From the IMG/VR virus record IMGVR_UViG_3300023301_000006, positions 8,424-72,423 of that record: a stretch of 64,000 nt of DNA. One strand, 5' to 3'. The position numbers were made by a program, and so were the translations under genes. Of this stretch, positions 30,896-64,000 are shown piece after piece (position 1 is the first letter of the stretch; every line of letters begins with the position of its first letter). The notes under the pieces were generated by a model that worked only from the letters and a program-made list of their open reading frames with translations, did no database searches and was not told the DNA's origin. This DNA is from a virus.

Positions 30896-30900
30896 ATTAT

Positions 30901-30998: not shown

Positions 30999-31036
30999 AC
31001 AATAAATGTTTGCGGAGCATACCAAAACCGTTTTAA

Positions 31037-31166
31037 TAGTGTGGGAAGTCCAGAGAGTGGACGCTTAAGACAATAATGTGAGTTAAATAAAGGTGGGTAA
31101 TCGTCTTTCCTTGTGAAGATTGAACCACTTTAACTCGATGCTAGGTTAAAATCCTAGCCCCACTAC
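31037..31166 (+). ncRNA. tRNA-like RNA with a long insert in place of the anticodon arm
   Basis: D-arm GTCC/GGAC, T-arm CTAGG-TTAAAAT-CCTAG, acceptor-like AGTGTGG/CCCCACT, inner stem GAGTTAAA/TTTAACTC. Confidence 0.5.
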
Positions 31167-31276
31167 ATATACATATAAACATACACTCTTAATAAATTAA
31201 ATCTAAATGAATTTGGAAACAGCTCTCTATTAGGAGAAGAGTTGTACAACATAAAAATTTACCAAGGAGGAAGATT

Positions 31277-31792: not shown

Positions 31793-31801
31793 GAGGAGAT
31801 T

Positions 31802-32344: not shown

Positions 32345-32357
32345 TTAGGAGGAGATT

Positions 32358-32759
32358 ATGTCAACTAATGCCAATGTTAAGTTTTACAACGATGGTCAGT
32401 TCGTTGCAAATATGTATAAGCACTGGGACGGTTATCCAGAAGGTATTCTTCCTGTATTGTTGAGAAATATCGCATTAAAAGAAGAAACACAGGGGATTTC
32501 TGAAAATGCAACTATAAAAACACACTACAATGGATTTGGTTGTCTAGTTGCTCAAATTATAAAGGGATTCAAAAAAGGCATAGGTGATGTTTACTTAGAG
32601 CCAGAGGGAGATTCATCAGAATTCAATTACATTATTGATTACAATAAGGGTGAACTTAATTTTAGGGCTTATCATTATGATGAATTAATTTTTGATGGTG
32701 GTCTTGATACATTAATAGACAATTCAAGAGACCCCATGTACTGGCGTGAATTACGGTAA
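32358..32759 (+). CDS. conserved phage protein (YKHWDGYPEG motif)
   Basis: ORF track; RBS; terminator follows. Confidence 0.7.
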   Translation: MSTNANVKFYNDGQFVANMYKHWDGYPEGILPVLLRNIALKEETQGISENATIKTHYNGFGCLVAQIIKGFKKGIGDVYLEPEGDSSEFNYIIDYNKGELNFRAYHYDELIFDGGLDTLIDNSRDPMYWRELR

Positions 32760-32798
32760 TTAATCCAATGGAATAGGACATATAAATACAATTATCTT

Positions 32799-32833
32799 AA
32801 GAGCCTATTCTTAAAAAATAGGTTCTTTTTTTT
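32799..32833 (+). terminator. intrinsic terminator
   Basis: AGAGCCTATT...AATAGGTTCT followed by a T-tract. Confidence 0.7.
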
Positions 32834-32933
32834 ATTTGACAAGTCATAGGTTTTGTGTTATAATATATGTATAGTAAGATAATTGAAAAGAGCAATTGGT
32901 CTTTCTATATAAGAATATCTTTAGAAAGGAGGT

Positions 32934-47964: not shown

Positions 47965-48246
47965 CTACACCTCTTTGTAAATTGGTGAGAGTAAATCAAT
48001 TGCGTTAATTATTTGAAAATTACTTGGATTCTTTTCTTGTTGAATGTATCCATCATTAACTGCTACATCAATCGTCCAGAAGTCTTGCTCACCCATCAAG
48101 ATAATCTCAGTTCTTCTTCCCATAAGTATTTTGAAATCAGAGTCTATATTATCATTATTATAAAAAAGATTATTAGTCTGTGCGTAGTGATATACTATTT
48201 CTATATCAGTTTTATTTCTTATTCGGATTATTGTGTAGTCCTTCAT
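47965..48246 (-). CDS. family C YxEV-tail protein
   Basis: IDSDFKILM; ends PIYKEV. Confidence 0.75.
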   Translation of the reverse strand: MKDYTIIRIRNKTDIEIVYHYAQTNNLFYNNDNIDSDFKILMGRRTEIILMGEQDFWTIDVAVNDGYIQQEKNPSNFQIINAIDLLSPIYKEV

Positions 48247-48250
48247 ATTA

Positions 48251-48532
48251 TTACACCTCTTTATAAAATCCTAAGGGCAAGTCAATTGCGTCAATTACTT
48301 GAAAATTGTCAAGATTCATTTTTTGTTGGCGATATCCATCTCTCAGTGCTATATCAACCGTCCAGAAGTCTGTCCCATCTATCAAGATAATTTCAGTTTC
48401 TCTTCTCATAAGTATTTTGAAATCAGAGTCTATTTTATTCTTATTATAAAGAAGATTATTTGCAAGTGCATAGGAGTATATTAACATTATGTCAATTTCA
48501 CTTTTTACTCGGATTATCGTATATTTTTTCAC
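48251..48532 (-). CDS. family C YxEV-tail protein (tandem duplicate)
   Basis: IDSDFKILM; ends GFYKEV. Confidence 0.75.
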   Translation of the reverse strand: MKKYTIIRVKSEIDIMLIYSYALANNLLYNKNKIDSDFKILMRRETEIILIDGTDFWTVDIALRDGYRQQKMNLDNFQVIDAIDLPLGFYKEV

Positions 48533-48536
48533 GTTA

Positions 48537-48794
48537 CTATACCTCCTTGAATATCACTTCAAACATGGTTTCTCTTATGTCTATTGTTTCATAAGTGAAA
48601 CCCATAGATTGTAGAGCTTTTAATTCCTTGTTGTAATCTACGCCAAAACTAACCCGATTCCATACACTTATACACCCCACTTGTGCCCTTGAGGGTATAT
48701 CAGAAGAATAATTGTGAATTCCTGCTGACCTTAAGTACTCTGGGAAATGTCTACGATTAAATCCAATTCTAAAATCTATTACTTTATAATCCAT
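48537..48794 (-). CDS. YxEV-tail protein
   Basis: Ends VIFKEV. Confidence 0.7.
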   Translation of the reverse strand: MDYKVIDFRIGFNRRHFPEYLRSAGIHNYSSDIPSRAQVGCISVWNRVSFGVDYNKELKALQSMGFTYETIDIRETMFEVIFKEV

Positions 48795-48795
48795 A

Positions 48796-49071
48796 CTACA
48801 CCTCCTTGTAAATGTAAATAAAATCTTTTATATATTTAATGCCTAACTCTTTCACTTCATTTCCTCTTTTTTTCTCATATCCAAGAGAATCATCATAGTT
48901 CTCCACAAGCCAGATAGAGTTATTTTCTATTATTACTCCTTGACAAGGGTAATTAATTAGTGCGTTTTCGTTTCCTGCGTGTTCTCAGACGTAATCCTTT
49001 ACTTTTGAAAAAATATAGAACATGTGTTTCTCAGAAAGATTAGTTAATCTAATTAAATCTATGGAACTCAT
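48796..49071 (-). CDS. YxEV-tail protein with in-frame TGA (absent from the ORF track)
   Basis: ATG after AGGAGGTG; TGA 48985; ends IYIYKEV; fills the gap exactly. Confidence 0.72.
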
Positions 49072-49073
49072 AA

Positions 49074-49364
49074 TTACACCTCCTGATATAATGGAAAAGT
49101 GTCTAGAACTTCTATAAAATCATAAACTCGATTACCCTGTCTTTTATAATAAGAAACGGGACATTTTGTTACTAATTTAGAACTACGTATGTGGTAGGCA
49201 ATATCCCTTTCTGCTCCTTCAAAGTAGTTAAGTTTTTCTAAGTCTCGTCCACTTTCCCATTGACAACCATCGTCACTTAACATTTTTGAAAGCATTCTGG
49301 TTTCATCGAGAGTTCGTAATCTTACTACAAATCCATTTTCTAATAAATCTCTTCTTATTTTCAA
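49074..49364 (-). CDS. family B YxEV-tail protein
   Basis: DGCQWESGRDL; ends LYQEV. Confidence 0.75.
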   Translation of the reverse strand: MKIRRDLLENGFVVRLRTLDETRMLSKMLSDDGCQWESGRDLEKLNYFEGAERDIAYHIRSSKLVTKCPVSYYKRQGNRVYDFIEVLDTFPLYQEV

Positions 49365-49367
49365 AAA

Positions 49368-49814
49368 TTACACCTCCTTGTACGTTTTATCAACGGGTCC
49401 AATTAACATATCTGCGTCAAAGCTATAAGGACTTCCTTCAAGACGATAAGTCCCATCAAAAGTAACAGTAGACACTTTAAATTTTTTGCCACAATGGTCA
49501 TTCATACTGGGTAAAAAACCCTTTTTTGTATCAACTAAGAATCCACTGAATTCATCTTCTGGGAATCCCTCAACGACTGTAAAATTCCTTTTAAACTGCG
49601 ATTTAGTTTTTACCCACACTATATCTCCGACAGAGAATCGAGGAGAGTCGAGAATTAGCTCCTCTTCTTTAAGAATAACATCAAAATCCGTAACTCCTTT
49701 ATAGATAGGGTGATATACGGGGTTGTGATTACAAGATGAAGCAGGTCTAGTGGTAAATCCACCTTTGATTCTATTCCCCTTTGTCTTGTAAAGTACACAT
49801 TGACATTCTATCAT
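49368..49814 (-). CDS. family A YxEV-tail protein
   Basis: FSVGDIVWVKTKSQF; FDADML; ends TYKEV. Confidence 0.75.
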   Translation of the reverse strand: MIECQCVLYKTKGNRIKGGFTTRPASSCNHNPVYHPIYKGVTDFDVILKEEELILDSPRFSVGDIVWVKTKSQFKRNFTVVEGFPEDEFSGFLVDTKKGFLPSMNDHCGKKFKVSTVTFDGTYRLEGSPYSFDADMLIGPVDKTYKEV

Positions 49815-50123: not shown

Positions 50124-50423
50124 TTATACCTCCTTGTACAAAAAACTTTCCTCAAGAATTTCTTCATATTCGCAAAAAATCTTCCCCGTTTTTCTACAAG
50201 ACTCAGAGTTAGTAAATCCTACGTAATGGCTTCCAGAATAAGGCTCTATTACGTATACTAAATCTCCTCTTTCTCTTGGACTAGGAGTAAAGGTCACTAG
50301 ACTTTCATTTGACCACCATTTGTAGTTAAGAAGGTCAAGTAATATTGAAAGTTCTTTGATTTCTTTCAACGTTTTTAGCTTAACTCTAAATCCTTCTTCG
50401 AGTAATTCCTGTTTTATTCTCAT
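50124..50423 (-). CDS. family B YxEV-tail protein
   Basis: LNYKWWSN; ends FLYKEV. Confidence 0.75.
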   Translation of the reverse strand: MRIKQELLEEGFRVKLKTLKEIKELSILLDLLNYKWWSNESLVTFTPSPRERGDLVYVIEPYSGSHYVGFTNSESCRKTGKIFCEYEEILEESFLYKEV

Positions 50424-50691
50424 TACATACCAGCTTCTTTCATTAGCTCCTTTTCGTAGGCGTCAGAAGCTTCAATAGATTCAATGTTCCCTTCTAGTGC
50501 ATCTCTGTACTCTCTTTCGTTAATTGCGTCCATTCCTTCGTGCTCCATAGCTTCTACTAGTTGGCATTGGTCTTCATATCTGTTAATGATTGTCATATTA
50601 TCTCACTCCTTTTTATTTTTTATTTCTTTCTATACTTATATTATATCAAAATACGAACAAAATTACAACAAAAAAAAGTAGAAAATTAATT

Positions 50692-50922
50692 CTACTCTAT
50701 TCGTTCTAAAAGTATCTTACTAGACTTTCTAAGAACATCATTTGATTCTTTACTGTCTGGTTTAAAACCAAGATTATGTTCAATGTAGTCTTGAGCTTCC
50801 TCAATATATTTCGCCATAGTCATCATCTTTCTTGTTGGATTCCCAGTTCTTAAAACATCAAAATCTTCTTCTGACATGAATGAATCTATACTACTTATGA
50901 ACTTATTTAAATTTTTACTCAT
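50692..50922 (-). CDS. hypothetical protein
   Basis: AAGGAGGTG RBS. Confidence 0.6.
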   Translation of the reverse strand: MSKNLNKFISSIDSFMSEEDFDVLRTGNPTRKMMTMAKYIEEAQDYIEHNLGFKPDSKESNDVLRKSSKILLERIE

Positions 50923-51027
50923 ACTAACACCTCCTTACATAAGTAAATACCCTAAGACGAACACAAATCCCATAATAAAACACATGAATAACAATACAAT
51001 AATTAGTTTATTCATATTATTTACCTC

Positions 51028-51330
51028 CTAGTTTAAAGTTCTTCTTAAAATTTCCCAGTACTCTAATGTGATAACTTTTTCCACAAACTCATAATCCACT
51101 TTACCTAGTGCAAAGCCAGCTATCATTCCATCTAAATATGTGTCTAAGTTTAAATGGTTGGTATCTGCATAATCAACTATTGAATTTGTTTCTGTGTTTA
51201 CTATCGCAAAGGTTTGCCCATCACTATTGTATATGTCATCAAATCTTATGTCCCCAAAATTCATGTCCATACTGGTAAAATATGACATCACTTGCGGGTC
51301 CACGATGTAATATTTCTCAATTATTAACAT
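51028..51330 (-). CDS. hypothetical protein
   Basis: ORF track, operon packing. Confidence 0.6.
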   Translation of the reverse strand: MLIIEKYYIVDPQVMSYFTSMDMNFGDIRFDDIYNSDGQTFAIVNTETNSIVDYADTNHLNLDTYLDGMIAGFALGKVDYEFVEKVITLEYWEILRRTLN

Positions 51331-51331
51331 A

Positions 51332-51727
51332 TTACTCGCCTCCTTCTGGGTCTTCTATTTTATAAGTAGTGACTGGGGTGATTTTAAGTGATTGAATAAA
51401 AACACATGAGGTTTCAGCAAATCCACGAATACTATCTTCTTCTTCTTCTTCGACTTTGCTAAAGTCAAACATCTCACACTCTGAAAACTCAAAGTAAGGT
51501 GTATTGACGATTGCCCCAAGAACATCATTCTTGTCTGTTAAACACACTGGAACGCAACGTACTTCACTGTGTTTGCCATCTAAATCACTCATCATCCATT
51601 CATCTCTTAATATATCAAACAATTCTTCAGCCTTATCTCTGCGGCACAATATTCCTTCAAATTTTATTGCTCCTGAGTACCACCCTTTTCCACGAAACCC
51701 CACATAAGCTAAATTCTCTAATTTCAT
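51332..51727 (-). CDS. hypothetical protein, paralog of 62596..63021
   Basis: Shared DLDGKHSEV motif. Confidence 0.7.
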   Translation of the reverse strand: MKLENLAYVGFRGKGWYSGAIKFEGILCRRDKAEELFDILRDEWMMSDLDGKHSEVRCVPVCLTDKNDVLGAIVNTPYFEFSECEMFDFSKVEEEEEDSIRGFAETSCVFIQSLKITPVTTYKIEDPEGGE

Positions 51728-51872
51728 AATTACAATACCCCCTTAGGCTTATAGTCCTTACAATTACTCACATCTGGGATTCTAAGAGATAAATCTAAAT
51801 CCCAATGACCTTCAAAACACGCCATACCATCTTTCTTCATATTCTTGCAACCGTTACATTTTAATTGCTTCA

Positions 51873-52316
51873 TTATGCCTCCTCGTAATACGCGTAGTCT
51901 AATAATTCAAAGTTTTTTAACGTCTTTACTACTTCAGAAGTTTCAAGACCAAGACTGTGAAATGTAATAACTAGTCCATGGTACAGAACCTTATAGTCAC
52001 AAATTACGAACTTACCGTCATACTTAGCATATACTTTCGCCCCTGACCTAATGTTTTCCATAGCAGTCTTAAAATCAATTTCTTCATACTTCTTATTCTC
52101 TAGTAACTCTAATTGATTTTCTTTTGCGTACAATACATTATAAATTAATCCACCTCTCTTTGAATGAATGATAATTCTAGGGTATACTTCTACAAAATCT
52201 GCTTCACGAGAGTCAATATCCAACATATCACAATAATCTGCCCACACTTCCCATGGAAAATCACTCTTGAGAATAGTAAATACTCCATTTCTCTTACTTT
52301 TACGAATATTATCCAT
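51873..52316 (-). CDS. hypothetical protein with a YEEA tail
   Basis: ORF track. Confidence 0.6.
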   Translation of the reverse strand: MDNIRKSKRNGVFTILKSDFPWEVWADYCDMLDIDSREADFVEVYPRIIIHSKRGGLIYNVLYAKENQLELLENKKYEEIDFKTAMENIRSGAKVYAKYDGKFVICDYKVLYHGLVITFHSLGLETSEVVKTLKNFELLDYAYYEEA

Positions 52317-52340
52317 TTGACACCTACTTCCTTTTTATAA

Positions 52341-52619
52341 TTATAATTTACTATCTCTAAATGCAAGTTCAGGGGAGAAGAATTCTTCATATCTCTTTTT
52401 CCCCATCAATTGAGATACTCTCACTGGTTTAGTGTTAGACTTCAAAGAGTCAAATTTTACCGCAAACCCACCCAATTCTATTCTATCTGGGGCGTTATAG
52501 CAACTTCCCTCTTTCTCAGGTTCTTCCATAGAAACCATTGCACAGTTGTGAGTTTTCCATACCCATTCGTATCTGTCTTTTAGCAATTTTAGTAACAGAT
52601 ATTCATTTTTAGTTAGCAT
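52341..52619 (-). CDS. hypothetical protein
   Basis: AAGGAGG RBS. Confidence 0.6.
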   Translation of the reverse strand: MLTKNEYLLLKLLKDRYEWVWKTHNCAMVSMEEPEKEGSCYNAPDRIELGGFAVKFDSLKSNTKPVRVSQLMGKKRYEEFFSPELAFRDSKL

Positions 52620-52639
52620 ATTAATCCTCCTTTTTTCCG

Positions 52640-53326
52640 TTATATTACCTCCTTGTAAAACGTATGGTCGGATAAATCACAAAAATTATAAATTTTATCA
52701 CTCCCCAAGCACTTCACAGGTGCATATCTATCGTATTTACACATATAAACCCTAACTAACTCAACCCCCACACCATCTTCTTTTATAAATACATTGCTTT
52801 CTTTAGATAAATACTCACTTTCTGAAATTTTTAAAAAGGCTTCTTTAAAACTTATTTGTTTATACTCTTTGGCTTTTTTAAATGCTATGTTGCCTTTTAG
52901 CAACCCGATTAACACACTTAGTTCATTGACCTCTTTTAGAGGTATTGACTCAGTACCAAAGCTAATACTGGAATATATTCTATCATCACCTACCCACCAG
53001 TCGTAATCTGAGTATTTGTGGTCTAACAACTTTATTCTTCCGCCACACTCTATTCCATTGTCTAATCTGAATTGCTCAACATAGTTTTTTCTCATTACCT
53101 CCTCAATTATTTCTGTCCAAGTATCAACAGCCCCTACAATTGTGCCATCAGGATATGATATTTCAAAGTAGAGCATGCCAGACGAAAACGGCATAGAGTG
53201 TTTTACTTTAGATATAGTGCCTATTTTTCCCTCAAACTCTCGCATTTCCTTGTTGAATAATTCCTTTTCTTCGTCTAATACGATTTTTACTTTTCTACCT
53301 ACTAATACTTCTTTCATAGTATTCAT
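52640..53326 (-). CDS. multi-module protein with a family-A-like N-terminus and a YKEVI tail
   Basis: VGRKVKIV...MREFEGKIGTI; ends FYKEVI. Confidence 0.65.
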   Translation of the reverse strand: MNTMKEVLVGRKVKIVLDEEKELFNKEMREFEGKIGTISKVKHSMPFSSGMLYFEISYPDGTIVGAVDTWTEIIEEVMRKNYVEQFRLDNGIECGGRIKLLDHKYSDYDWWVGDDRIYSSISFGTESIPLKEVNELSVLIGLLKGNIAFKKAKEYKQISFKEAFLKISESEYLSKESNVFIKEDGVGVELVRVYMCKYDRYAPVKCLGSDKIYNFCDLSDHTFYKEVI

Positions 53327-53507
53327 CTCCTATTCATTAAACAAGTATTCTGTAGTTACAATGACCACAGAAGATTACTTCATTATAGTCCCATAGTGAT
53401 GTGTCATCATATTGTATTAAGCTACCACAGTGTCTACAGGTCACCGTTTTTATTAAGCGTATGTGGTTAAAACCTTTACTGTCATGATATTTCCTCCTTT
53501 TGTAAGA

Positions 53508-53744
53508 TTAACAATCCTTATATATTATATTTAATTTTGTTCTTACATAATAGTTATAGTGAAATAATTGAAACATTTGGATTCCATAGGTAGTAGAATC
53601 GTTTATTTCAAAAAGAAGGTATTCGTCAAACGTCTCGCTATACTTTACCACATATTTTTCCTCACGGTACTCAACAAAAGTTTCCAACCCATGGTTTAAC
53701 CTTTCAAACATTTCTCTTGACGGTATTTTATGGTATTCAGTCAT
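53508..53744 (-). CDS. hypothetical protein
   Basis: Promoter, AAGGAGG; ends IIYKDC. Confidence 0.6.
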   Translation of the reverse strand: MTEYHKIPSREMFERLNHGLETFVEYREEKYVVKYSETFDEYLLFEINDSTTYGIQMFQLFHYNYYVRTKLNIIYKDC

Positions 53745-53988
53745 TTTGTTTTCCTCCTTTTTTTATCTTCTATATATATTATATCACCAAATGAAGGATT
53801 TTTCAAGGACAATCTGTAGATTTCCATCGTGGGTGGGGGACTACTACCAGCGTGTAAGGTGGGGGAGTTACGAATAGTCAATGAATGTGTGTGGTGAATT
53901 ATGGAAAATAAGGTGAAAATGAGGGTGGTTTATCGACACCACTCCACTGTGGAATAAACATTAATTACCAAATTTTTACTGCCTCCCT

Positions 53989-54040
53989 CTATTTATATCT
54001 ATTTATATCTATTTAAAGACTATTTAAAGACTATTTCAGA
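53989..54040. repeat. AT-rich 10-11 bp repeats (putative DNA unwinding element)
   Basis: CTATTTATAT x2, CTATTTAAAGA x2, CTATTTCAGA next to the iterons. Confidence 0.65.
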
Positions 54041-54097
54041 GAAAACGCCACTCCCCATAAACCCTTCTATAGCCTCATCTATTGGGGTTTCAATAAT

Positions 54098-54202
54098 TAG
54101 TTAAACGGAAAATATAACTAGTTAAACGGAAAATATAACTAGTTAAACGGAAAATATAACTAGTTAAACGGAAAATATAACTAGTTAAACGGAAAATATA
54201 AC
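54098..54202 (+). repeat. five perfect 21-bp iterons (plasmid-type origin)
   Basis: TAGTTAAACGGAAAATATAAC x5 with no spacers, directly upstream of the rep promoter. Confidence 0.9.
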
Positions 54203-54219
54203 TTATTCGGAAAACGCAC

Positions 54220-54248
54220 TTGACAAATTCCGTATGTTGTGATACAAT
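54220..54248 (+). promoter_or_regulatory. rep promoter
   Basis: TTGACA-N17-TACAAT with extended TG. Confidence 0.75.
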
Positions 54249-54267
54249 ATAAATAGGAGATGATAAT

Positions 54268-54987
54268 ATGAACAACTTAGATGTAGTCAAGCACGGTAGC
54301 TTGATAGACGCAACGTCAGAGAAACCCTTTTCACAATTTGAACAACAGTTTATAGCAGAGGCACTGTCAAAGATTTCTATGGAGGACAATGAACTGAAGG
54401 ATACGGAGATAGACGTAGATGAACTTTACGAAGAGTGTTTTGGAGGTGTTCCGTCAGGGGTCACTAAGAAAAAGGCTTATGGAGCCCTAGAGGGATTGAC
54501 AGAGAAAAAGATAACGATACATGTAAATGGACTAAAAAGGAAAGAGAGAGCATCATTCTCGTGGCTCAGCTTGTTCGTATATGACAAAGTTACAGGCAAG
54601 GCTACAGCCCATATTAACAAAGATGCAGCAATATATTTGTTGAATCTTGACGATAATTTCACAAAGATAAAAAGGGAGATATACATGCTAATGAGTAATA
54701 CTTATGGTACAAGACTCTTAGAACTCATGAGTAAGGTATATGGTGCTGTGAATGAGAGACTCTTTACAATAGAAGAATTGAGAAAACTGCTTCATGTGGG
54801 GGACAGGTATCCGAGTAACTACGACCTTAAGAGATATGTAATAGAGCCAGCCATCGAAGGAGTGAATGAACTAGCAGACTTTGTATTAAGTTATGAACAG
54901 ATTAAAACAAAAAGGAGAATATCACACTTCAAATTTACAAAGCACAAGAAGAAAGATTTAGATGAGCACAAGCCTATAGAGTTTTAA
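54268..54987 (+). CDS. repB: plasmid replication initiator (Rep_3/RepB family)
   Basis: FSWL, YLLNL..NFT, SNTYGTRLLELM, FTIEELRKLL, DLKRYVIEPAI..VN; adjacent iterons. Confidence 0.88.
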   Translation: MNNLDVVKHGSLIDATSEKPFSQFEQQFIAEALSKISMEDNELKDTEIDVDELYEECFGGVPSGVTKKKAYGALEGLTEKKITIHVNGLKRKERASFSWLSLFVYDKVTGKATAHINKDAAIYLLNLDDNFTKIKREIYMLMSNTYGTRLLELMSKVYGAVNERLFTIEELRKLLHVGDRYPSNYDLKRYVIEPAIEGVNELADFVLSYEQIKTKRRISHFKFTKHKKKDLDEHKPIEF

Positions 54988-55210
54988 CAGCTCCATTTGT
55001 GTGTATCCACAACGCACCGTAGAAAGGAGGTCCACACCACTTTACACAGCTTAGTAACTACTGCTTTTGTTGACACCCTACCTTAACAATAAGGGTGTAT
55101 TTAGCATACAAAGAATACAGTAAAGGTGAATCAAATCCTTACAAGCTCAATGATTTCCTTACAATGCCTCGGAATAGTTTTGTAAATAAAAAATAACCTC
55201 CGTTAAGAGG

Positions 55211-55450
55211 TTACATAATTCCTAATACTTTAAATACAAAAGATACAACAGCCCCTATAAATAAAATGGGGATTGTGAACGCCAGAAAGGATATTATATT
55301 ATCCATCAGTTTGTCAAATACATTCGACCAATTAGTGTTTATAATGAATGCTTCATACATTTCTTCAAAGGCAAAGACTATCAACATAGCCAGAGAGCCA
55401 ATTACAAAAAGTGAAAGAAGAGAATTTAATATGGACTCTATAGCAGCCAT
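55211..55450 (-). CDS. two-TM membrane protein (tandem trio)
   Basis: Hydrophobic pattern shared with the next two ORFs. Confidence 0.6.
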   Translation of the reverse strand: MAAIESILNSLLSLFVIGSLAMLIVFAFEEMYEAFIINTNWSNVFDKLMDNIISFLAFTIPILFIGAVVSFVFKVLGIM

Positions 55451-55674
55451 AACATATCAAACCCAAACAAGTGTAAGATGAATCCCACTATAAAGCCAAT
55501 GGACGCAAGACACAACGTAACAATAATTGTACTAAAGAGAGCAAGTATAGTAGCATATAGGAACGTTCCTACCCATTCCAACGCTTCTACGTAATTAAAG
55601 AGTCCTCTTATGATAAAAAATATCAGGACCACTATAATCCCTAGCCCCATGTATAAAACAATTAAATCTATCAT
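55438..55674 (-). CDS. two-TM membrane protein
   Basis: Start after GGAGG; ends IGFIVGFILHLFGFD. Confidence 0.6.
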   Translation of the reverse strand: MIDLIVLYMGLGIIVVLIFFIIRGLFNYVEALEWVGTFLYATILALFSTIIVTLCLASIGFIVGFILHLFGFDMLWLL

Positions 55675-55780
55675 GTGTACCTCCATTCCTAAGTTTTTCG
55701 CATAATTGTATATGCTAGAACACCCAAAAGCCCAATTAATGTATATGAAACAACAACAATGTACATAGGGACTTCCTGTG

Positions 55781-56014
55781 CTATCCAATCCAAAAGTAAT
55801 CAACTCCAAACAAGTATAAGATGAACCCTACGGTGAGTCCAATTGTCATAATGGCTCCTATGGCTACCATAACTATAAATATCCCTAAGGCAACGTCTTT
55901 AAACGATACTATCCAACGATAGTGGTCACTTACATAGTCAAAGATTTCCCCCAACACAAAATACGCTATCACACAGGCAAGACCCAGAAATGTAATTTTA
56001 AAAAGTATTCCCAT
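55781..56014 (-). CDS. two-TM membrane protein
   Basis: Ends IGLTVGFILYLFGVD, paralog of the previous ORF. Confidence 0.6.
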   Translation of the reverse strand: MGILFKITFLGLACVIAYFVLGEIFDYVSDHYRWIVSFKDVALGIFIVMVAIGAIMTIGLTVGFILYLFGVDYFWIG

Positions 56015-56063
56015 ATATACTACCTCCTTAGTTTAGACAAGAAAAAGTAACCCCCTGGAGGGA

Positions 56064-56354
56064 TTACTCAGTGTCTTCATCTTCTTCATCAACGTCGTCA
56101 TCTTCATCTTCATCTTCAGCAACTTCGTCTTCAACTTGTTCAGTCAATCTCTCAATAGACTCAGCTTCAAAATCCACTTTAGCCTTCTTAAGGATTACCT
56201 TAACGATTACGTGCTCTTTAGTCTCAACATCTTCCATTAGCATACCTTGCTTAACGTTGCCAAGAATAGCGAAGCCCTCGAATTCTACTTTGGAGATAGT
56301 GTCGTAAATTGCATTTCTCTTAAGTTCATTTGCAGTTATTTTTCTTTCAGCCAT
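56064..56354 (-). CDS. NELKRN family protein, copy 1
   Basis: TANELKRNAIY...VKQG...KVILKK, acidic tail. Confidence 0.72.
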   Translation of the reverse strand: MAERKITANELKRNAIYDTISKVEFEGFAILGNVKQGMLMEDVETKEHVIVKVILKKAKVDFEAESIERLTEQVEDEVAEDEDEDDDVDEEDEDTE

Positions 56355-56442
56355 TAGTTAGCCACCCTTCATATTGTTTTATGTTACAAGAGACAGAACC
56401 ATTCTATCCCCCACTTCTATAGGTACATCATTATAGACTATA

Positions 56443-56694
56443 TTATGTGTAAAAGTCCAAGCAATCTGTGGAACCATCTTCAAATGTAACCTTGATAAGC
56501 CCAATCATATACTCAATCTTTCTGACATTTTCTTTGATTTCTTCAACCTTACCATCTGTGAAATTAATAACCAGTGAATCGTAAGTTCCTACAATAGTCT
56601 CAACTGTTCCACTTCTGACATTACTCAAGTTGCCCTGGTAGTTACATAGGACATCAACTCTCTTACCAACAAATCTATTTAAGTTTTTAGTCAT
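56443..56694 (-). CDS. small beta-rich protein (LDF-tail family)
   Basis: Paralog of 57941..58189. Confidence 0.7.
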   Translation of the reverse strand: MTKNLNRFVGKRVDVLCNYQGNLSNVRSGTVETIVGTYDSLVINFTDGKVEEIKENVRKIEYMIGLIKVTFEDGSTDCLDFYT

Positions 56695-56947
56695 AGTATT
56701 CTCAACCCCTTTTTTTATTTTCTTTCTATACTTATATTATATCATTAGACTAACAATTTTGCAACAACAATTTTAATTCATTTCTAATTTGCTTTTTTTA
56801 TGAGTATACCGAAAATACTATTAATGTTATTATAGCCATTATAATCATATACACAACTGTTCCTCCTGTCATATTATTACCTCCTTTTTTTATTTTCTTT
56901 CTATACTTATATTATACCACCAAAGGAACAATTCTACAAGAACAATT

Positions 56948-57151
56948 TTATTTAAATGTAATCTTGACTTGTCCCAATAGCAATTCTTTAAGGAGTGCAG
57001 AGTCTTTCCATCCGCTTGAGTTAGGCTTGTAATATTGCAGTCCTGTGTTGTTGATTCTATAGAAGTATCTCCTACCCTCAATTCCAAATTCCTGATTCTT
57101 TTCCACAGCAAGGGTCTTTAGTGCTTCGTCTAACAATTCATTTGACAGCAT
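56948..57151 (-). CDS. hypothetical protein
   Basis: Own promoter and AAGGAG. Confidence 0.6.
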   Translation of the reverse strand: MLSNELLDEALKTLAVEKNQEFGIEGRRYFYRINNTGLQYYKPNSSGWKDSALLKELLLGQVKITFK

Positions 57152-57577
57152 TCTAACCAGCTCCTTTTATTTTTTATTTTCTTTCTATACTTATATTATA
57201 TCACCAGATGAACAATTTTGCAACAACAATCTGTGTCTAGTTTGCCTTACAGCTCCATTATTCGTGTAAGCAAACCCTTACAGGTCCTATATGTGCTTAC
57301 AGCTCCAATATACGAGTAGACAGAGGGGTGGATACCACCCATTTATACAGGATGAGGCTATTGCAGGTTCTCTCAGCTCCAGTCACCGTAAGAAAAGTTT
57401 ACTTTAAATTTACAATAAGGGTGCAGGAAAATTGTTGAATGTAATGTTTTCTATACGTTGGTAAGGGAAACCTTACAAATCCCGGGTGCTTTACATAATC
57501 CTTACAAACGAGGACCGGTCCCAATTGTAAAGTTTTCCTTACAAATGTAATCAAAAAAAAAGCAACCCTTGTAAGGG

Positions 57578-57841
57578 CTACTCTTCTTTTGTATCTTCTT
57601 CCTTATCCTTTGTATCTTTTTCCTCAACTTGTACGGTTGGACGTTCGATACTGTTGGTTTCAAAGCTAACCTTTGTTTTCTTAAGGATTACCTTAATAAT
57701 CACATCTTCTTTGTCATCTTTACTTCTCATAAGAATTCCTTGCTTTACATGACCAATTGCATTGTAATCTTCAAAGTCAGTTTGTGCGATAGTTTCGTAA
57801 AGTCCGTTTCTCTTAAGTTCGTTTTTTGTAAGTTTTCTCAT
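57578..57841 (-). CDS. NELKRN family protein, copy 2
   Basis: LTKNELKRNGLYETIAQ. Confidence 0.72.
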   Translation of the reverse strand: MRKLTKNELKRNGLYETIAQTDFEDYNAIGHVKQGILMRSKDDKEDVIIKVILKKTKVSFETNSIERPTVQVEEKDTKDKEEDTKEE

Positions 57842-57940
57842 AGTGTTTACACCCCTTTACAATTCTGGAACAGAACCTTTTTTCTGTTCCTTTTCTATAC
57901 TCTTATTATACATCTTTTTTGCCATTTTGTCAAGACTTTT

Positions 57941-58189
57941 CTAAAAGAAATCTAAAAAAGTTTGAGAGCCGTCATTGTACGTAATTCTTACAAAGTTACT
58001 GAAATATCCGATTTCTCTTACATTTGTTTTATACTTCTCACGTCTGCCGTCTCGATATCTTACATCTAAGCTTTCATTTGTACCTTCCATTGTACAAACT
58101 GTACCAGTTGTAACGATTAGCATTTTTCTACCTGTGTAAAGTACAACGTCCATTTCCTTACCTAAAAATCTTTCAAAATTCTTTTCCAT
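57941..58189 (-). CDS. small beta-rich protein (LDF-tail family)
   Basis: Own promoter; paralog of 56443 and 26666. Confidence 0.7.
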   Translation of the reverse strand: MEKNFERFLGKEMDVVLYTGRKMLIVTTGTVCTMEGTNESLDVRYRDGRREKYKTNVREIGYFSNFVRITYNDGSQTFLDFF

Positions 58190-58546
58190 AATATTTTCCC
58201 CCTTTGTTCTATACTTATATTATATCAAATTATTTTCGACTTGTCAAGAGAAAACTTTTTTTATTTTCTGACCAGTCTTTTTTTATTTCCTTTCTTGCTA
58301 TGCTTATATTATATCAGATTGCCCCAAAAAAGTCAAGGAATTTCTTTGTCTAGTTTATATTTTCTTTGTATACAGCTCCTAATTTTGTTAAGTAATACCT
58401 TACACGGAGTTTTTTTATATTGAGACCTTACATAATCCTTACAAAGGGTCCCGGGTTCGAACTGTAAAGTATTCCTTACAAGTGTAAACAAAAAGAAAAG
58501 CAAGGTTTCCCTTACTTTAATAAGATTAGTGGAATTAATGTATTTT

Positions 58547-59089
58547 TTATAAATTTAGACGAGAAATATCAAGTTTTCCTTCTTCCAATGGGAAGAACCC
58601 TTGTTCTTCTAGTTCTTCATACACAAGCTCATTAATTTCACGTTCTGTAAAGTCTTCTATATTTGATAAAAATATTTCGATATTTGTTTCCATTTCTAGA
58701 TGGTGGTTCATAAAAGTAACAAGGAAAGCTGATGTTATTTCTTTTTCTACAATCTCATAAGCTTGTCCTGTTTTTCTTATGTTTATTTCTACATCACTTA
58801 CATATATATCTGTAATTATAGAGTCTTTTTCAAAGTATTCTGCAATTGTATCTTGATTTAACTCAGTTATACCGAAATTTCTAAATCTGGACCCATCTGT
58901 AAAAACCCCACAATATTTCTGACTATAAGCTCCTTGACTTACAAATGTCCACGTTTGACCGTTTACTGTAACTGTGTAACTTTCACGACCACCTACCATA
59001 GCATCAAAAATTCTTTCAATTAAATCTTCTCTTGTGATATCCTTTGATTGTTCATCTTTAATTATTTTTACTGTTGTCATAATTTTCAT
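58547..59089 (-). CDS. hypothetical protein
   Basis: Promoter cassette, MKIM start. Confidence 0.65.
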   Translation of the reverse strand: MKIMTTVKIIKDEQSKDITREDLIERIFDAMVGGRESYTVTVNGQTWTFVSQGAYSQKYCGVFTDGSRFRNFGITELNQDTIAEYFEKDSIITDIYVSDVEINIRKTGQAYEIVEKEITSAFLVTFMNHHLEMETNIEIFLSNIEDFTEREINELVYEELEEQGFFPLEEGKLDISRLNL

Positions 59090-59163
59090 CTCCTTTTCTT
59101 CTATACTCTTATTATATCATACCTTGACTATCTGTCAAGGGTTTTTTTAAATTCTTTTGTAAA

Positions 59164-59430
59164 CTATACTATACACAAATGGTGTGGTGAAAATTCCAAA
59201 CACTCTGCCAACATTTTTTCATTTCTTGTTATTTCTGCCTTAAGCATTTCAATTCTTTCTTCTAATTCGTCTTCTGTTACTTCTTGAATTCCCATTTCCA
59301 TATGAGAATGTCCTCTAAATGCGTCTTTTTCATCTTCTGCTTTAATGTAGGCAACTGTTTCGCCCACGCCGTAACCCTTCATTTCGTCTGTGTAATGGTA
59401 TATTTTAAATAATTTTGTCATAATTTTCAT
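59164..59430 (-). CDS. hypothetical protein
   Basis: Promoter cassette, MKIM start. Confidence 0.65.
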   Translation of the reverse strand: MKIMTKLFKIYHYTDEMKGYGVGETVAYIKAEDEKDAFRGHSHMEMGIQEVTEDELEERIEMLKAEITRNEKMLAECLEFSPHHLCIV

Positions 59431-59481
59431 CTCCTTTTTTCTATACTCTTATTATATCATATCTTCTTAAATTGTCAAGCT

Positions 59482-59730
59482 TTATTTTAAGATTTTAATA
59501 ATTATTAAATAATCAACTTGCAAGTCATACGGATTATAGTCTACGGCTTTTTTAAACATTTCAGAAACTTTCATTCCTTTGTTGAATTTTTTTTCACCGT
59601 ATTCTAATTTTCTAGTAAGTCTATTATTTAAAAACTCTTCTTTAGTCATCATTGCTAATAGTACATTTATACCTTCATATTTCTGAGAAAAAACATTAAG
59701 AATTTTTCTGTACTTTCTATCGCTTATCAT
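59482..59730 (-). CDS. stand-alone copy of an internal segment of 20949..22016
   Basis: SDRKYRKILNVFSQKYEGINVLL...YNPYDLQ nearly identical to about residues 53-127 of that protein. Confidence 0.7.
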   Translation of the reverse strand: MISDRKYRKILNVFSQKYEGINVLLAMMTKEEFLNNRLTRKLEYGEKKFNKGMKVSEMFKKAVDYNPYDLQVDYLIIIKILK

Positions 59731-59918
59731 AATATCTACCCCTTTTCTTCTTCTTCTGTACCTTAATTATACCACAATCAAAACCATTGTCAAGCTTTAT
59801 TTCACATTTATTTGTGTAAATTTTACCTTACAAAACGCCCCGGGTTGGGATTGTAAAGTATTCCTTACATATGTAAACAAAAAAAGTACCAGACGCTATG
59901 TCCAGTACTCTTTATAAA

Positions 59919-61034
59919 CTATTCTTTTTTCACACTTTTGATAACTTTTGTAATTTTTTCTTTACTTTTGTTTAATGTTTTCATTAAGTTTTCTTTAAAA
60001 TTCTTAAGCTTTGTTTTTACTACTACCTTTGTAGCCAAAGATTTAATTCTGTCTTGATTTAAATACAGTACGAATGCCAAACCTAAAAGCCCAATTGTTA
60101 TCTGTCGCTTACTTAAATTACTTACTTTTGTTTTTAACTCTGCTTTATAGTTCCAAATATTAAATTCTTCATCAAAATCAAATCCAGTTAATTCAAAAGC
60201 GATTAAACCAATAGGTAAAATTGTTTTAAACGTTTTGGACTTTACAACTTCTTCAAAATTAACTTCAGAAAGCTTTGAGGTTATTAAATGAAAGTTATCA
60301 TTGATTAACTCTTCAACGTTCCCAGTTCTAAAGCTATTAAACAAAGTCATAAATAAATTTACGATTGGATTAATTCCACCGTCATACTCAAAAGGTGTTA
60401 TAAGCTTTTTAAAAGTTTTGTTTCCTAAGATATCTATAGTTGGTGCGATTGTTTTAACTTGTTCACTAGAATAACTAATTGCAATTACTTCATTCTTTTC
60501 TATTCGTCTAACTCTCAATAGTTCGCCGTCCATTGATTTTACTGTATCGTTAGATTGAATATCTTTAATAGTTGTAGGAATTAAAACTCCCACAGGAATA
60601 TTCTTAATAAATTCAGTACCCTTTGTTTTTACCATACCGTCAACAGATTTTGAATATGTCTTGCCATAAAATGACAATCCAGTTGGTGTTAAAGCTACAT
60701 TTTCATCATTTACCAAAAACTTACTAATATTACCCAATACATTTTTCATAATTTTTCCCCCTATTTTTTTATTTATCATATCATTTTCTGTATCATCTTG
60801 AAACATGTCATCTGTCCAAGTATGTCCATAAATTGTACCAAAAGGTTGTCTTAACTGATACCCATATAAATTTACTTTCCTAATCGTTGCTGAGTCCCCA
60901 GAATAACGTTCAATCATTTTCTCGTTTGCTTTTTCTGAATGGTCTCCGTCGTCCATATAATAAAAGTCTTGAGTATTTAAATCTGTTCTAATTTTCACTT
61001 GGTCCCCTACTTTTAAGTTTCTCATAATTTTCAT
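59919..61034 (-). CDS. protein with a family-A-like N-terminal domain and C-terminal hydrophobic segments
   Basis: LKVGDQVKIR...WTDDMF; possible internal start at 60749. Confidence 0.65.
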   Translation of the reverse strand: MKIMRNLKVGDQVKIRTDLNTQDFYYMDDGDHSEKANEKMIERYSGDSATIRKVNLYGYQLRQPFGTIYGHTWTDDMFQDDTENDMINKKIGGKIMKNVLGNISKFLVNDENVALTPTGLSFYGKTYSKSVDGMVKTKGTEFIKNIPVGVLIPTTIKDIQSNDTVKSMDGELLRVRRIEKNEVIAISYSSEQVKTIAPTIDILGNKTFKKLITPFEYDGGINPIVNLFMTLFNSFRTGNVEELINDNFHLITSKLSEVNFEEVVKSKTFKTILPIGLIAFELTGFDFDEEFNIWNYKAELKTKVSNLSKRQITIGLLGLAFVLYLNQDRIKSLATKVVVKTKLKNFKENLMKTLNKSKEKITKVIKSVKKE

Positions 61035-61335
61035 TTTCCTTTCTTCTTCTTCTGTACCTTAATTATACCATATTATAGCAAGTTGTCAAGGACTTTCTTC
61101 AAATTCTTTTTTTATCTTTGTCCCTTTGCTATACTTATATTATATCACAATTGAGGACTCTGTCAAGTGTTAAATTTAAGTTTATTTGTGTAAATTTTAC
61201 CTTACAAAATGCCCCGGTTCCGAATTGTAAGGTTTTTCTTACAAATGTTTTATTACAAGGGAAAAGCCCCTACTTATGTAAGGGCTAAAAGGGAAAAACT
61301 TTGTTTCGTATACACACCTTTAAGTATGTAATGTA

Positions 61336-61410
61336 TGGCGTACCTGGTAGGACTCGAACCTACATACCCTTGATTAACAGTCAAGTGCTAAGCCTTTTAG
61401 CTACAGATAC
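61336..61410 (-). tRNA. tRNA-Asn(GTT), second copy
   Basis: CTTGA-CTGTTAA-TCAAG, GCCA end. Confidence 0.88.
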
Positions 61411-61416
61411 AAATTT

Positions 61417-61494
61417 TGGTTGCTGTGGTTGGACTCGAACCAACATATGACAGTCTATAAAACCGTTTAGGAAACCATTATCCCAACACTCGCA
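61417..61494 (-). tRNA. tRNA-Ile(TAT)-like with an irregular acceptor stem
   Basis: ACGGT-TTTATAG-ACTGT, T-arm GTTGG-TTCGAGT-CCAAC, ACCA end. Confidence 0.65.
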
Positions 61495-61665
61495 TTATGT
61501 AAGCGACTACTGACACGTGCCTCGAAGAACACAGTTTTCGTCGCTTTTGTAAATTATTTTCTATATACTGAACTGTCAAATAAAGCTTGAATTAATTTGA
61601 GAATGAACATTTACCAACCTCCTTTTCAATTGTAAGGTAATGAAGAAAGAAGTAAGGCTTTCGCC

Positions 61666-61944
61666 TTAGTCTTCTTCTGTTTTTTCATCATTCTCAACTT
61701 TTTCTTTATCTTCTTTTTTCTTTTCTTCAACTTGCTCAACTAATCTTTCAATCTGCTCAGTTTCAAAATCAACCTTTTCTTTTTTAAGGATTACTTTAAT
61801 AACAATGTTATCGCCGTTTTCCTTGTCTTCGATTAATAGACCTTGCTTTACATGACCTTTTACTAAAAAGTCCTTAAATTCTGCTTGAGCGATTGTTTCG
61901 TATAAACCATTTCTCTTTAATTCATTAGCTGTTAATTTTCTCAT
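61666..61944 (-). CDS. NELKRN family protein, copy 3
   Basis: LTANELKRNGLYETIAQ. Confidence 0.72.
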   Translation of the reverse strand: MRKLTANELKRNGLYETIAQAEFKDFLVKGHVKQGLLIEDKENGDNIVIKVILKKEKVDFETEQIERLVEQVEEKKKEDKEKVENDEKTEED

Positions 61945-62595
61945 AATATTCAACCCCTTTTAATTTTTAGAATAACAACCTTTTTGTTATCCTTTTCTAT
62001 ACTCTTATTATACCAAATATTTCATAGAATGTCAAGACTTTTTTTAATTCTTTTTTTCTTTTATTGCCTTTCTTTCTATACTCTTATTATAACATTTTTT
62101 CTACAAGGTGTCAAGCTTTTATCCAAAGTATTTAATAATTTTAATCATTAGCCAAAATGCCAAACCCACAACACTAATTTGGAATAAGCCAACTGCTACC
62201 ATTGTAGCGACAACAGTTTTATCAGTAGTTTCGCTTTTCATAATGTTTCCCCCTTTTCTCTATACCCTTATTATATCAGACAAGAGATAAAATGTCAAGA
62301 CTTTTTTTATTTTTATTTTACCTTGAGAAATACTTTTCATCTCTTTGCTATACTCATATTGTATCATTCCGAATACAGTTTGTCAAGAGTTTTCTGAAGT
62401 TTTTTCTTCAAGGTGCTTTTTGTTTATCTCTTTTCTATACCTTAATTATACCAAAATATGCCCAAAAAGTCAAGGGTTTTCTTTGTCTAATTACAATTAT
62501 TTGTGTAAACAAAACCTTACAAATCGTCCCGGGCACACTTTACACAATCTTTACAATTGTAAGCAAAAAAAAGTCCCTATTTCTAGGGATATTTT

Positions 62596-63021
62596 CTAAA
62601 GGATAACCGTTTCGTCGCCAGAAGTCATTTTGAATTTTGTTACTTTTTCAATTTTCATTCTGCCAAATTTTTTATTTAATTCTGATAGCTCTAATTTTTT
62701 TTCTTTAAATTCTTTTTCACTTTCAAAGGTTTTATTTACAAACAACTCAATTCCGTAATTAATGCCGTTTCCATCAATCCCATAGTCCCAAATATTTTTC
62801 ACAAAGTCATTTGGTTCAATTGTTGTAAAAAAATCTCCTTTAACTTCACTATGTTTCCCGTCCAAGTCCCCAAAATACCATTCTTTTCTAATATTCTTAG
62901 ATAATTTTTCTAAGTCTTCTTTTTTACAAATAATACCACATAAACCTGTAGAATTAGAATATTCGCCGTAACCCCAATAACCAATAAAAGCATAATCTTT
63001 AAATTCTAACATAATTTCCAT
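62596..63021 (-). CDS. hypothetical protein, paralog of 51332..51727
   Basis: DLDGKHSEV. Confidence 0.7.
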   Translation of the reverse strand: MEIMLEFKDYAFIGYWGYGEYSNSTGLCGIICKKEDLEKLSKNIRKEWYFGDLDGKHSEVKGDFFTTIEPNDFVKNIWDYGIDGNGINYGIELFVNKTFESEKEFKEKKLELSELNKKFGRMKIEKVTKFKMTSGDETVIL

Positions 63022-63079
63022 CTCCTTTTCTATACTCTAATTATACATCAATATTATTAATTTGTCAAGGAATTTCTTC

Positions 63080-63832
63080 CTAAAGTGACAATCAAGCCAC
63101 TTTAAAGAAGTTTTTCACTTTTCGCCAAGGTGCTCCACAAAATCCAGTTTTATATGTTTTTGTGTTATATACTAATTTTCTATCTAAGTTGTGATAAATC
63201 ATACTTTCATCAATTGCGTCTGCTAGTCCAGTATGTTCCTCAATATAATAGTCATCGCCAAACATAAATCTATAAGTAACTTCTGCATTTGTTTTGTAAT
63301 TTCCTTTTTCTGTTACATGTCCATTTTCTAAAACAAATTCTTGAAAACTTTCTTGTAGTAAAACTGTCTCACATACTAGACCCCAAATATCTAAAAATTC
63401 ATATTGACCTTTTACAATTAATTTAAATGACTCTTTGTAGTCAACTTTTTTGTTGTCTTTATATTTTAAAGTTCTTTTTCCTTTTGCTAAAATTCTCATA
63501 TAGCTATGAACCAAAGCTCTAATATCAAATAATAAGTTATAAGCTAATACTTTTGAAACATTATTTATTTCAATATCATTTCTTAAAATTTTAACCATTT
63601 CTAAAAATGGAATTGTAATATGCTCTAAAGCTAAGTAATGTTTTTTTACTTTATCCGCAAAATATGCACTATCCATTAATTCTTTGTTGTTAAAAATTTC
63701 TTCTACTAAAAATCTTCTTTTCTTTAATGTTTTGCCTTGTGGTGAAGTAATTACCCAACCGATATCGTAAATTAGTGGTTTGTAAACTGAACCTGCTGTT
63801 TCTACATCAAATGTTAAGTTATTCTTTTTCAT
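63080..63832 (-). CDS. DEDDh 3'-5' exonuclease
   Basis: FDVETA, AYNLLFD, EEHTGLADAIDE; TGA at 63092 followed by LSL-TAG. Confidence 0.82.
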
Positions 63833-64000
63833 AATTTTTTCCCCTTAATCTTTTTTTAGTTTCCCTTTGTCTTTCTATACTCTTATTATACCATAGTGAT
63901 TGAGATTGTCAAGCTTTATTTTAATTCTTTTTTAGATTATTTATCTCTTTCTTTCTATACTCTTATTATAACACATCTGAGACCCTTGTCAAGCTTTATT

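Follow-up and report, generated by a model that had tools for sequence, protein, structure and literature searches.

In the window analysed here, a 64-kb stretch of the single linear 72,423-bp IMG/VR contig IMGVR_UViG_3300023301_000006, a plus-strand gene (rep, 54268-54987) encoding a 239-aa Rep_3 initiator lies just behind five identical 21-bp iterons, and the two together form a cassette that is very probably, as far as its sequence tells, a genuine Rep_3 iteron origin of replication. The contig probably derives from an SPbeta-like phage of salt-lake Bacillota, about 150 kb in full size, that reads TGA as Trp; the endolysin, the replisome, tRNAs and the Rep_3 protein are all carried on it. 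By analogy with phiSemix9P1, KS14 and SSU5 we tentatively propose that the likeliest use of the cassette may be to maintain the phage outside the host chromosome, as a plasmid prophage.

The elements of the cassette follow one another in the order AT-rich repeats, iterons, promoter and rep. The iterons, putative Rep binding sites, stand head to tail on the plus strand at 54098-54202 (five exact copies of 21 bp, 100% identical) and end 66 nt before the ATG of rep. At up to three mismatches the 21-nt unit occurs five times in the 64 kb, always within this array, while 0.01 occurrences are expected from shuffled sequence. About 60 nt from the iterons, a 10-nt unit repeated 2.8 times (53988-54015) and an 11-nt unit repeated 2.5 times (54009-54036), both as direct repeats with 100% matches, make up a tract with a local AT content of up to 82%, which may serve as the DNA-unwinding element (53988-54036). 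The promoter of rep (TTGACA-17-TACAAT with an extended -10 TG; 54220-54248, +) is a near-consensus sigma-A promoter matching at 11 of 12 positions. A preliminary description of this DNA, made without database searches, had reported perfect 21-bp iterons, AT-rich repeats at about 53989-54040 and a promoter beside the iterons, and all three are found as described. The -35 box of the promoter is bracketed by CGGAA at 54208, belonging to a sixth CGGAAAA core, and by TTCCG at 54228, belonging to an inverted TTCCGT in the spacer; these motifs are 5-6 nt long, and by analogy with Rep_3 plasmids the pair (54208-54233) is a putative autorepression operator. The rep frame is preceded at 8 nt by AGGAG, contains a single Trp codon (TGG) and no TGA, and ends in TAA.

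The cassette has signals for transcription at both ends. A terminator-like hairpin followed by a T-run (55193-55214, -) would end minus-strand transcripts arriving from the right before they run antisense into rep, and a divergent promoter on the left (TTGAAA-17-TATAAT with TG; 53778-53806, -; 11 of 12 positions) would restart leftward transcription into the gene at 53508-53744. On account of this terminator and this new minus-strand promoter the unit appears transcriptionally insulated. The DnaA-box-like sites of the preliminary description are present, TTATCGACA (53930-53938, +) within a short hairpin (53925-53942) and GTATCCACA (55003-55011, +) downstream of rep, but they do not stand out: the window contains 20 one-mismatch sites for TTATCCACA, where 22.6 are expected, and because this count is at chance level the 9-mers were given no weight. 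No RNA family, and hence no known antisense control RNA, was found in 53300-55400 with Rfam at E values up to 1. A role of the iterons as a packaging or terminase site only was considered and rejected, the Rep_3 gene directly downstream making Rep binding the simpler explanation.

Rep is a member of the Rep_3 family with two winged-helix domains (WH1 and WH2). It matches Pfam Rep3_N (PF01051) at 2e-16 (61.1 bits, cut-off 22.4; residues 6-154 on profile positions 2-140 of 141) and Rep3_C (PF21205) at 1.6e-17 (63.9 bits, cut-off 21.1; residues 167-224 on profile positions 1-58 of 59), and is further supported by phrog_4402, "replication initiation protein" (1.8e-24), and by seven distinct RepE/RepB-family sequences of the PDB (2z9o, 1rep and others; E 6e-4 to 2e-3, residues 47-224). 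It is the sole plus-strand open reading frame (ORF) of at least 200 aa between 36.7 and 64 kb. The earlier recognition of a Rep_3-type initiator on the strand opposite to its neighbours is confirmed. Family membership and the order of elements likewise support the comparison, made in the preliminary description, with the origins of theta plasmids and phage-plasmids. In the Rep_3 plasmids (F RepE, R6K pi, pPS10 RepA, Acinetobacter RepM) the initiator has two winged helices, tandem 21-22-bp iterons lie just upstream of rep and AT-rich repeats adjoin them, as here; this canonical Rep_3/iteron layout is described in a review (PMC4980987). Unlike in these plasmids, the present cassette is situated inside a phage genome, its DnaA boxes, an element of many Rep_3 origins though not of all, do not exceed chance, and neither an OrfX-type nor a partition gene stands alongside.

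Within the family, Rep belongs to a divergent and modestly new branch. An identical Rep is encoded on a contig of 115.5 kb. An exhaustive HMMER search with Rep gives 3,535 cluster representatives at E<=1e-3, but six at E<=1e-30; the closest relative is 67% identical and the next five 33-46%, and all of them are encoded on metagenome contigs of 0.9-3.3 kb. Identity to Acinetobacter RepM and replication proteins is 24-32% over about 97% of the length. A tblastn search of a phage collection matched 10 records in total: the Clostridioides phages phiSemix9P1 and HGP05, Burkholderia KS14 (two records) and a relative of it, four Acinetobacter records of 4-8 kb and one 30-kb virus. Single-protein scans of viral contigs and of genome contigs returned no close relative of Rep, nor did a two-sequence Rep profile run against the genome contigs. 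The iteron sequence has no exact match in the viral contigs, 53700-55200 has no megablast match in the phage collection, and the neighbouring proteins encoded at 52640-53326 and 59919-61034 have no relatives in the viral contigs. The predicted complex of Rep with the N-terminal part of the phage DnaB (residues 1-235) scored 0.16 versus a mark of 0.32, with no controls folded, which speaks neither for nor against binding.

The join between the cassette and the phage DNA is genuine and not chimeric. A second metagenome contig, obtained independently (L002; 6,575 bp), aligns collinearly and without a gap to 50310-56839 (99.74% identity) and, like the record itself, runs through the array, with all five iterons and both flanks in common. 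Both flanks of the cassette carry small phage genes of the same style. Two further sequencing runs have small shares: X2 has six short contigs, and X3, a salt-lake run whose relatives are mostly less than 95% alike, has a rep fragment about 94% identical (340 nt, 19 differences) together with downstream DNA. L002, the flanks and the X3 rep fragment speak against an assembly artefact, in which the replicon would have been mis-joined to phage DNA at the tandem repeat, and we regard such an artefact as extremely unlikely. What favours it comes from run X1, which contains 95% of the sampled words of 52000-57000: the X1 Logan contigs are interrupted within the array, at 54127 and 54174, and their depth differs on its two sides. 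The break points, however, are exactly those to be expected when a 31-mer graph meets a 21-bp tandem repeat, and this is presumably the cause of the breaks.

Mean contig depth in X1 is 377 (48431-49612) and 380 (50619-54127) to the left of the array, and 731 (54174-55768), 765 (56108-56740) and 759 (57171-58369) to its right, continuing at 826 (58527-59128) and 765 (59102-59773); one left-hand contig, over a variable stretch, has a depth of 239. The two-fold step thus coincides with the origin within about 100 nt. Of the assembly properties on which the preliminary description had placed weight, continuity stands, as L002 spans the array. Since each contig has a single depth value, which does not allow genes to be ranked, the step is a lead and not evidence. 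It is possible that a long direct terminal repeat starts near the iterons and contains the block of early promoters to the right of rep; it is also conceivable that the step is the sawtooth of unidirectional theta replication, or that a second co-resident replicon or strain shares the right-hand part alone.

As the preliminary description had noted, the phage also encodes its own DnaE, primase and helicase, and these were all identified in a replication module of SPbeta type (7197-19926, -). The module consists of AAA_24 (Sak4-like), a small Zn-ribbon ORF, DnaB with an intein, primase, a RecJ-like protein and DnaE in three exons, an order identical to yorG-yorH-yorI-yorJ-yorK-yorL of SPbeta. 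DnaE (7197-11810, -) is 35-38% identical to SPbeta YorL and is divided among three ORFs, the gaps between which hold group-I-intron-like RNA (8548-8808 at 48.3 bits, just under the gathering score; partial matches at 9483-9902); its C-terminal part matched one contig among the viral contigs, of 14.8 kb (L025). DnaB (15957-18332, -) is interrupted at the P-loop by a LAGLIDADG intein. The ribonucleotide reductase gene (RNR; 2810-6034, -) is split by two group I introns above threshold (4115-4386 and 4603-4868). Eight in-frame TGA codons are spread over six ORFs of the module. The replisome would accordingly require both splicing and UGA decoding, two needs that the preliminary description had attributed to it correctly. 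An intein-less form of DnaB, 435 aa long and 99% identical, occurs on another contig, and Priestia megaterium and Niallia circulans have DnaB relatives with 43-46% identity, a hint that the host range of the module may be Bacillaceae-like.

The replication module showed no other recognisable origin-binding protein. Rep3_N is absent from both SPbeta and Enterococcus phage EF1 (0/2), two phages with the same replisome type, in a search in which the phiSemix9P1 control was positive; Rep_3 is therefore not the conserved initiator of the SPbeta-type module. SPbeta shares with the present phage the yorG-yorL gene order, a related DnaE and introns in RNR, but it has neither Rep_3 nor an iteron cassette. 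G+C at third codon positions (GC3) is 0.40 in rep, which ranks 76th of 77 genes of at least 100 aa (second-highest; mean 0.286, standard deviation 0.046). The absence of Rep_3 in SPbeta and EF1 together with this atypical GC3 points to an acquired cassette, probably captured from a plasmid and now lying in the accessory or early arm of the phage genome. According to a review, SPbeta itself integrates by means of a serine recombinase and uses the standard code, and its replication process is uninvestigated (PMC8270828).

Reading of TGA as Trp is real in this phage. Translated with code 4, the separate ORFs of DnaE, RecJ, primase, DnaB, AAA_24, the lysin and others join up as full-length proteins with complete coverage by Pfam or PHROG families, and coding density rises from 0.82 to 0.86. 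The TGA at RecJ codon 557 aligns to the conserved W of NEWNG in PDB 8y30, and that at codon 89 falls on a non-conserved position. Stop codons are TAA (79) and TAG (34); 19 ORFs end in TGA under code 11, at most four of which are plausible real ends, each with a TAA or TAG 2-14 codons further on. Nowhere does the record follow a code in which TGA serves as a stop. A candidate long-arm, selenocysteine (Sec)-shaped tRNA with anticodon UCA, a putative UGA suppressor, is located at 30901-30994 (+); it has the loop CUUCAAA and an encoded GCCA end, but remains below threshold, with 24 bits to tRNA-Sec versus a gathering score of 47, and was not called by ARAGORN.

Among the phages that resemble ours in carrying Rep_3, phiSemix9P1 and HGP05 give the best full-length phage matches (RepB, 23-24% identity over 94% of Rep). 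In phiSemix9P1, which also has a Firmicute host, an AT-rich tract is followed by 8 x 22-bp iterons and then by RepB, in the same order as here. The two differ from the present phage in the length of RepB (404-412 aa versus 239 aa) and in their genomes of 56-64 kb. phiSemix9P1 is extrachromosomal in lysogens and is reported to carry parA, whereas none was found in the present 72 kb, and phiCD211 illustrates that Firmicute plasmid prophages of 130 kb exist (PMC6127314). SSU5 is named as a phage-plasmid in PMC7969092. It combines plasmid and phage replication genes on one molecule, with annotated ParA, helicase, primase, ligase and Pol III alpha, so there is a precedent for phage-plasmids that encode a DnaE replisome of their own, and since SSU5 has both, possession of such a replisome is no argument against plasmid carriage. 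Phage P1 has separate plasmid (RepA/iteron) and lytic replicons. SSU5-type phages and P1 differ from the present phage in their host phylum, in using the standard code and in having known partition genes.

Metagenomic comparators give a further impression of the company that Rep_3 keeps. Seventeen IMG/VR contigs have Rep_3 relatives, and five of them were tested: CbiA/ParA was found in four of the five (in all three of those at least 90% complete), tyrosine integrase in one, DNA_pol3_alpha in none and DnaB_C in one. In viral contigs Rep_3 thus usually occurs with ParA and without a phage replisome, judging by these five. One IMG/VR locus (L008) has 5 x 22-bp repeats just ahead of its rep.

By homology with RepE/pi/TrfA-type systems, Rep monomers would bind the five 21-bp iterons, open the adjoining AT-rich 10/11-bp repeats and load a replicative helicase, after which a replisome would start theta replication; Rep dimers would repress rep by occupying the inverted half-iterons on either side of the -35 box. 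Because rep has a host-type sigma-A promoter, no TGA and no intron, the origin could fire without other phage products. In a plasmid prophage the SPbeta-type replisome would serve lytic growth. The data establish the anatomy of the cassette, its family membership, its contiguity with the phage DNA and the absence of Rep_3 from SPbeta and EF1; origin activity, autoregulation and a plasmid lifestyle are what we infer. The first of these steps, in which Rep binds the iterons, the AT repeats melt and the helicase is loaded (PMC4980987), would be common to a plasmid prophage, to an origin used early in infection and to a passenger replicon, the three uses that have to be weighed.

Maintenance as a plasmid prophage, the use that we tentatively favour, has several observations against it. 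No CbiA/ParA, ParB_N, tubulin/TubZ or HTH_3 domain was found in the 72 kb (StbA/ParM, for which the control was silent, is outside this negative), and the ten nearest neighbours of rep match no Pfam family. Three of the four ParA-positive comparators have ParA no more than about 4 kb from rep, unlike here, and in KS14, a plasmid prophage, ParA is two genes away from RepB (gene 39 versus gene 37; PMC3091744). No relative of Rep was found among 185,579 species genomes, and hence there is no sighting in a host assembly. With respect to the phage-plasmid class, phage genes and a plasmid replicase are present on one molecule, and partition genes were not found in the available half. Tyrosine Phage_integrase and Resolvase-domain recombinases were likewise not found in the 72 kb, a result in favour of plasmid carriage. 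The preliminary description had looked to partition genes, a repressor and the lack of an integrase as marks of a phage-plasmid; in the 72 kb no partition gene, HTH_3 repressor or integrase was found. Since 48% of the genome is available, these absences are weak evidence either way. A last point against plasmid carriage concerns the surroundings of the cassette. The record contains 21 perfect TTGACA-N16-18-TATAAT promoters (shuffle mean 0.2), 13 of which lie in 57905-63992, all on the minus strand and about 3 kb to the right of rep; six further ones are at 25678-32836 (+), upstream of the block of ROOL RNA and tRNAs. Terminators in 44-64 kb number 23 versus 7.4 expected. The promoter block resembles the regions of strong promoters from which large virulent phages, SPO1 and T5 among them, express early or host-takeover genes, and the position of rep beside it, with a promoter of the same class, fits an immediate-early lytic function just as well.

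An early, lytic origin is in our estimation rather unlikely but is the foremost of the other uses. Transcribed at once by host RNA polymerase, rep would supply the initiator, and Rep and the iterons would start the first theta rounds at infection, through either the host replisome or the phage DnaB, and the SPbeta-type replisome, delayed by UGA suppression and by intron and intein removal, would take over later, in one programme with two steps. The near-consensus rep promoter and the adjoining early-promoter block suit this use, as does the contrast between rep with its surrounding block, which is TGA-free or TGA-poor, and the replisome genes with TGA. It also gains from the lack of any other recognised origin-binding protein in the module, from the lack of a lysogeny or partition gene in the available half, and from the review's statement on SPbeta replication, which leaves no competing known origin for this replisome type (PMC8270828). 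It is opposed by SPbeta and EF1, which manage without Rep_3, and by the compositionally foreign character of rep, which stands 35 kb from the replication genes and on the opposite strand. The Rep relatives in the phage database, moreover, include known plasmid prophages, and tight control by iterons and autorepression would, by analogy with plasmid biology, suit the limitation of copy number better than runaway replication in the lytic cycle (PMC4980987). Less probable still is that the replicon is a passenger unneeded by the phage, either selfish or a weapon that interferes with plasmids or rival phages sharing Rep through incompatibility or titration. Its compact and insulated form (terminator at 55193-55214, promoter at 53806), its atypical GC3 and its absence from the two phages with the same replisome would agree with this, and so would the occurrence of the Rep subfamily otherwise on small contigs (0.9-3.3 kb) alone. 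Yet the cassette is intact, its iterons being free of mutations and its Rep complete; L002, an independent assembly, shows the same arrangement, the X3 rep fragment suggests retention, and there is no evidence for a target plasmid.

The preliminary description went further and proposed that the genetic code itself acts as the lifestyle switch, with a plasmid mode run by Rep in the host code and a lytic mode unlocked by the phage tRNA(UCA). This received no support as far as it was keyed on Rep, and we consider the switch highly improbable. In its favour are the reality of the in-frame TGA codons, one of them at a conserved Trp (RecJ 557), the existence of a tRNA(UCA) candidate, and the uneven distribution of TGA: 22 TGA versus 84 TGG to the left of 25 kb and 6 versus 97 to the right (Fisher p 0.002), the enrichment on the left falling in lysis and replication genes. 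The general idea has also been published, as a code-based switch between lysis and lysogeny hypothesised for the integrases of recoded prophages (preprint 10.1101/2021.08.26.457843). The lack of TGA in Rep is, however, nearly uninformative. The expected number of TGA in rep is 0.37, giving a probability of 0.69 for none, and its single Trp would be TGG by chance with a probability of 0.87, which bears out the caution that the preliminary description had itself expressed about this residue; 79 of the 96 called genes are equally without TGA. RNR, thymidine kinase and dUTPase, genes of the lytic phase, likewise have none. As the whole genome avoids TGA stops, the rep block is better described as code-neutral than as written in the standard code. 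In addition, the plasmid lifestyle is itself a hypothesis, and the tRNA is the sub-threshold candidate described above. The whole 46-gene block around rep is TGA-poor, so that the TGA-free state belongs to this block and not to rep, and it suits a division between early and later genes at least as well as one between plasmid and lytic genes.

The recoded phages of Borges et al. (10.1101/2021.08.26.457843) resemble the present one in that TGA is concentrated in lysis genes, a candidate suppressor tRNA is present and a code-based switch has been hypothesised. TGA has also been shed as a stop in both: the preprint gives 4 of 146 TGA stops in a relative, versus at most 4 of 96 here. Unlike in those phages, the core replication genes are recoded as well, and the putative maintenance gene is a plasmid Rep and not an integrase. 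The word "plasmid" does not occur in the main text of the preprint, and no recoded phage-plasmid was found among the papers listed by a literature search. A reading that joins the depth step to the order of expression would have the iteron origin active in nature and one-directional, the step being either a theta sawtooth or the trace of a co-resident, Rep-driven sub-genomic replicon; Rep, free of TGA and under a host promoter, would run a first phase dependent on the host replisome (a carrier state or early infection) and then hand over, gated by the genetic code, to the SPbeta-type replisome locked by UGA, introns and intein once tRNA(UCA) accumulates. We regard this combination as very unlikely, if somewhat less so than the switch.

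The module itself is an ordinary Rep_3 replicon and the code-switch hypothesis is already known; modestly new are a TGA-recoded phage of SPbeta type from salt-lake metagenomes and the placement of the cassette, at the margin of a block of early promoters. What the analysis chiefly contributes is a correct annotation and one lead, the step in depth at the origin. Should plasmid carriage be true, phage-plasmids would come to include a stop-codon-recoded phage and SPbeta-like phages of salt-lake Bacillota, hosts without genetic tools would gain a small clonable Rep_3 origin, and the published idea that recoding separates carrier-state from lytic genes would have a concrete system.

The record as a whole is a fragment, 48% complete according to CheckV and without terminal overlap; G+C in the window is about 0.28-0.39, and no structural genes were found in the 72-kb fragment. 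Thymidine kinase, dUTPase, deoxynucleoside monophosphate kinase and RNR are encoded, and salvage genes of NadR/PnuC type for nicotinamide adenine dinucleotide are present. An 883-aa multidomain lysin and a protease are also encoded. The frame of the lysin (G000:C1:1585-4236, outside the window) unites S8-protease-like, amidase/endolysin and peptidoglycan-binding parts (PHROG endolysin families) and, with four in-frame TGA, is the most TGA-rich gene. A wall-less (Mollicutes) host was rejected because the phage encodes this amidase and peptidoglycan-binding lysin.

The record has 17 tRNAs and a ROOL RNA (27743-28303, 293 bits). An 82-nt unit repeated 2.7 times (26919-27142), with a consensus promoter in each copy, precedes the ROOL RNA and the array of tRNAs. 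Directly 3' of ROOL is a 69-nt RNA (28323-28391, +) with an encoded CCA and ends like those of transfer-messenger RNA (tmRNA) and no tag-coding part; it scores 44.8 bits versus a tmRNA gathering score of 47. A tRNA at 30193-30264 (+) reaches 57.8 bits with Rfam and was not called by ARAGORN; its anticodon is read as UCC. Most of the small neighbour genes match nothing in PHROGs or Pfam. Small paralogous gene pairs about 1.5 kb apart occur in the early block (56064-56354/57578-57841 and 56443-56694/57941-58189), one pair having an acidic C-terminal tail, and a 286-nt tandem repeat is present in 1.9 copies at 47966-48517.

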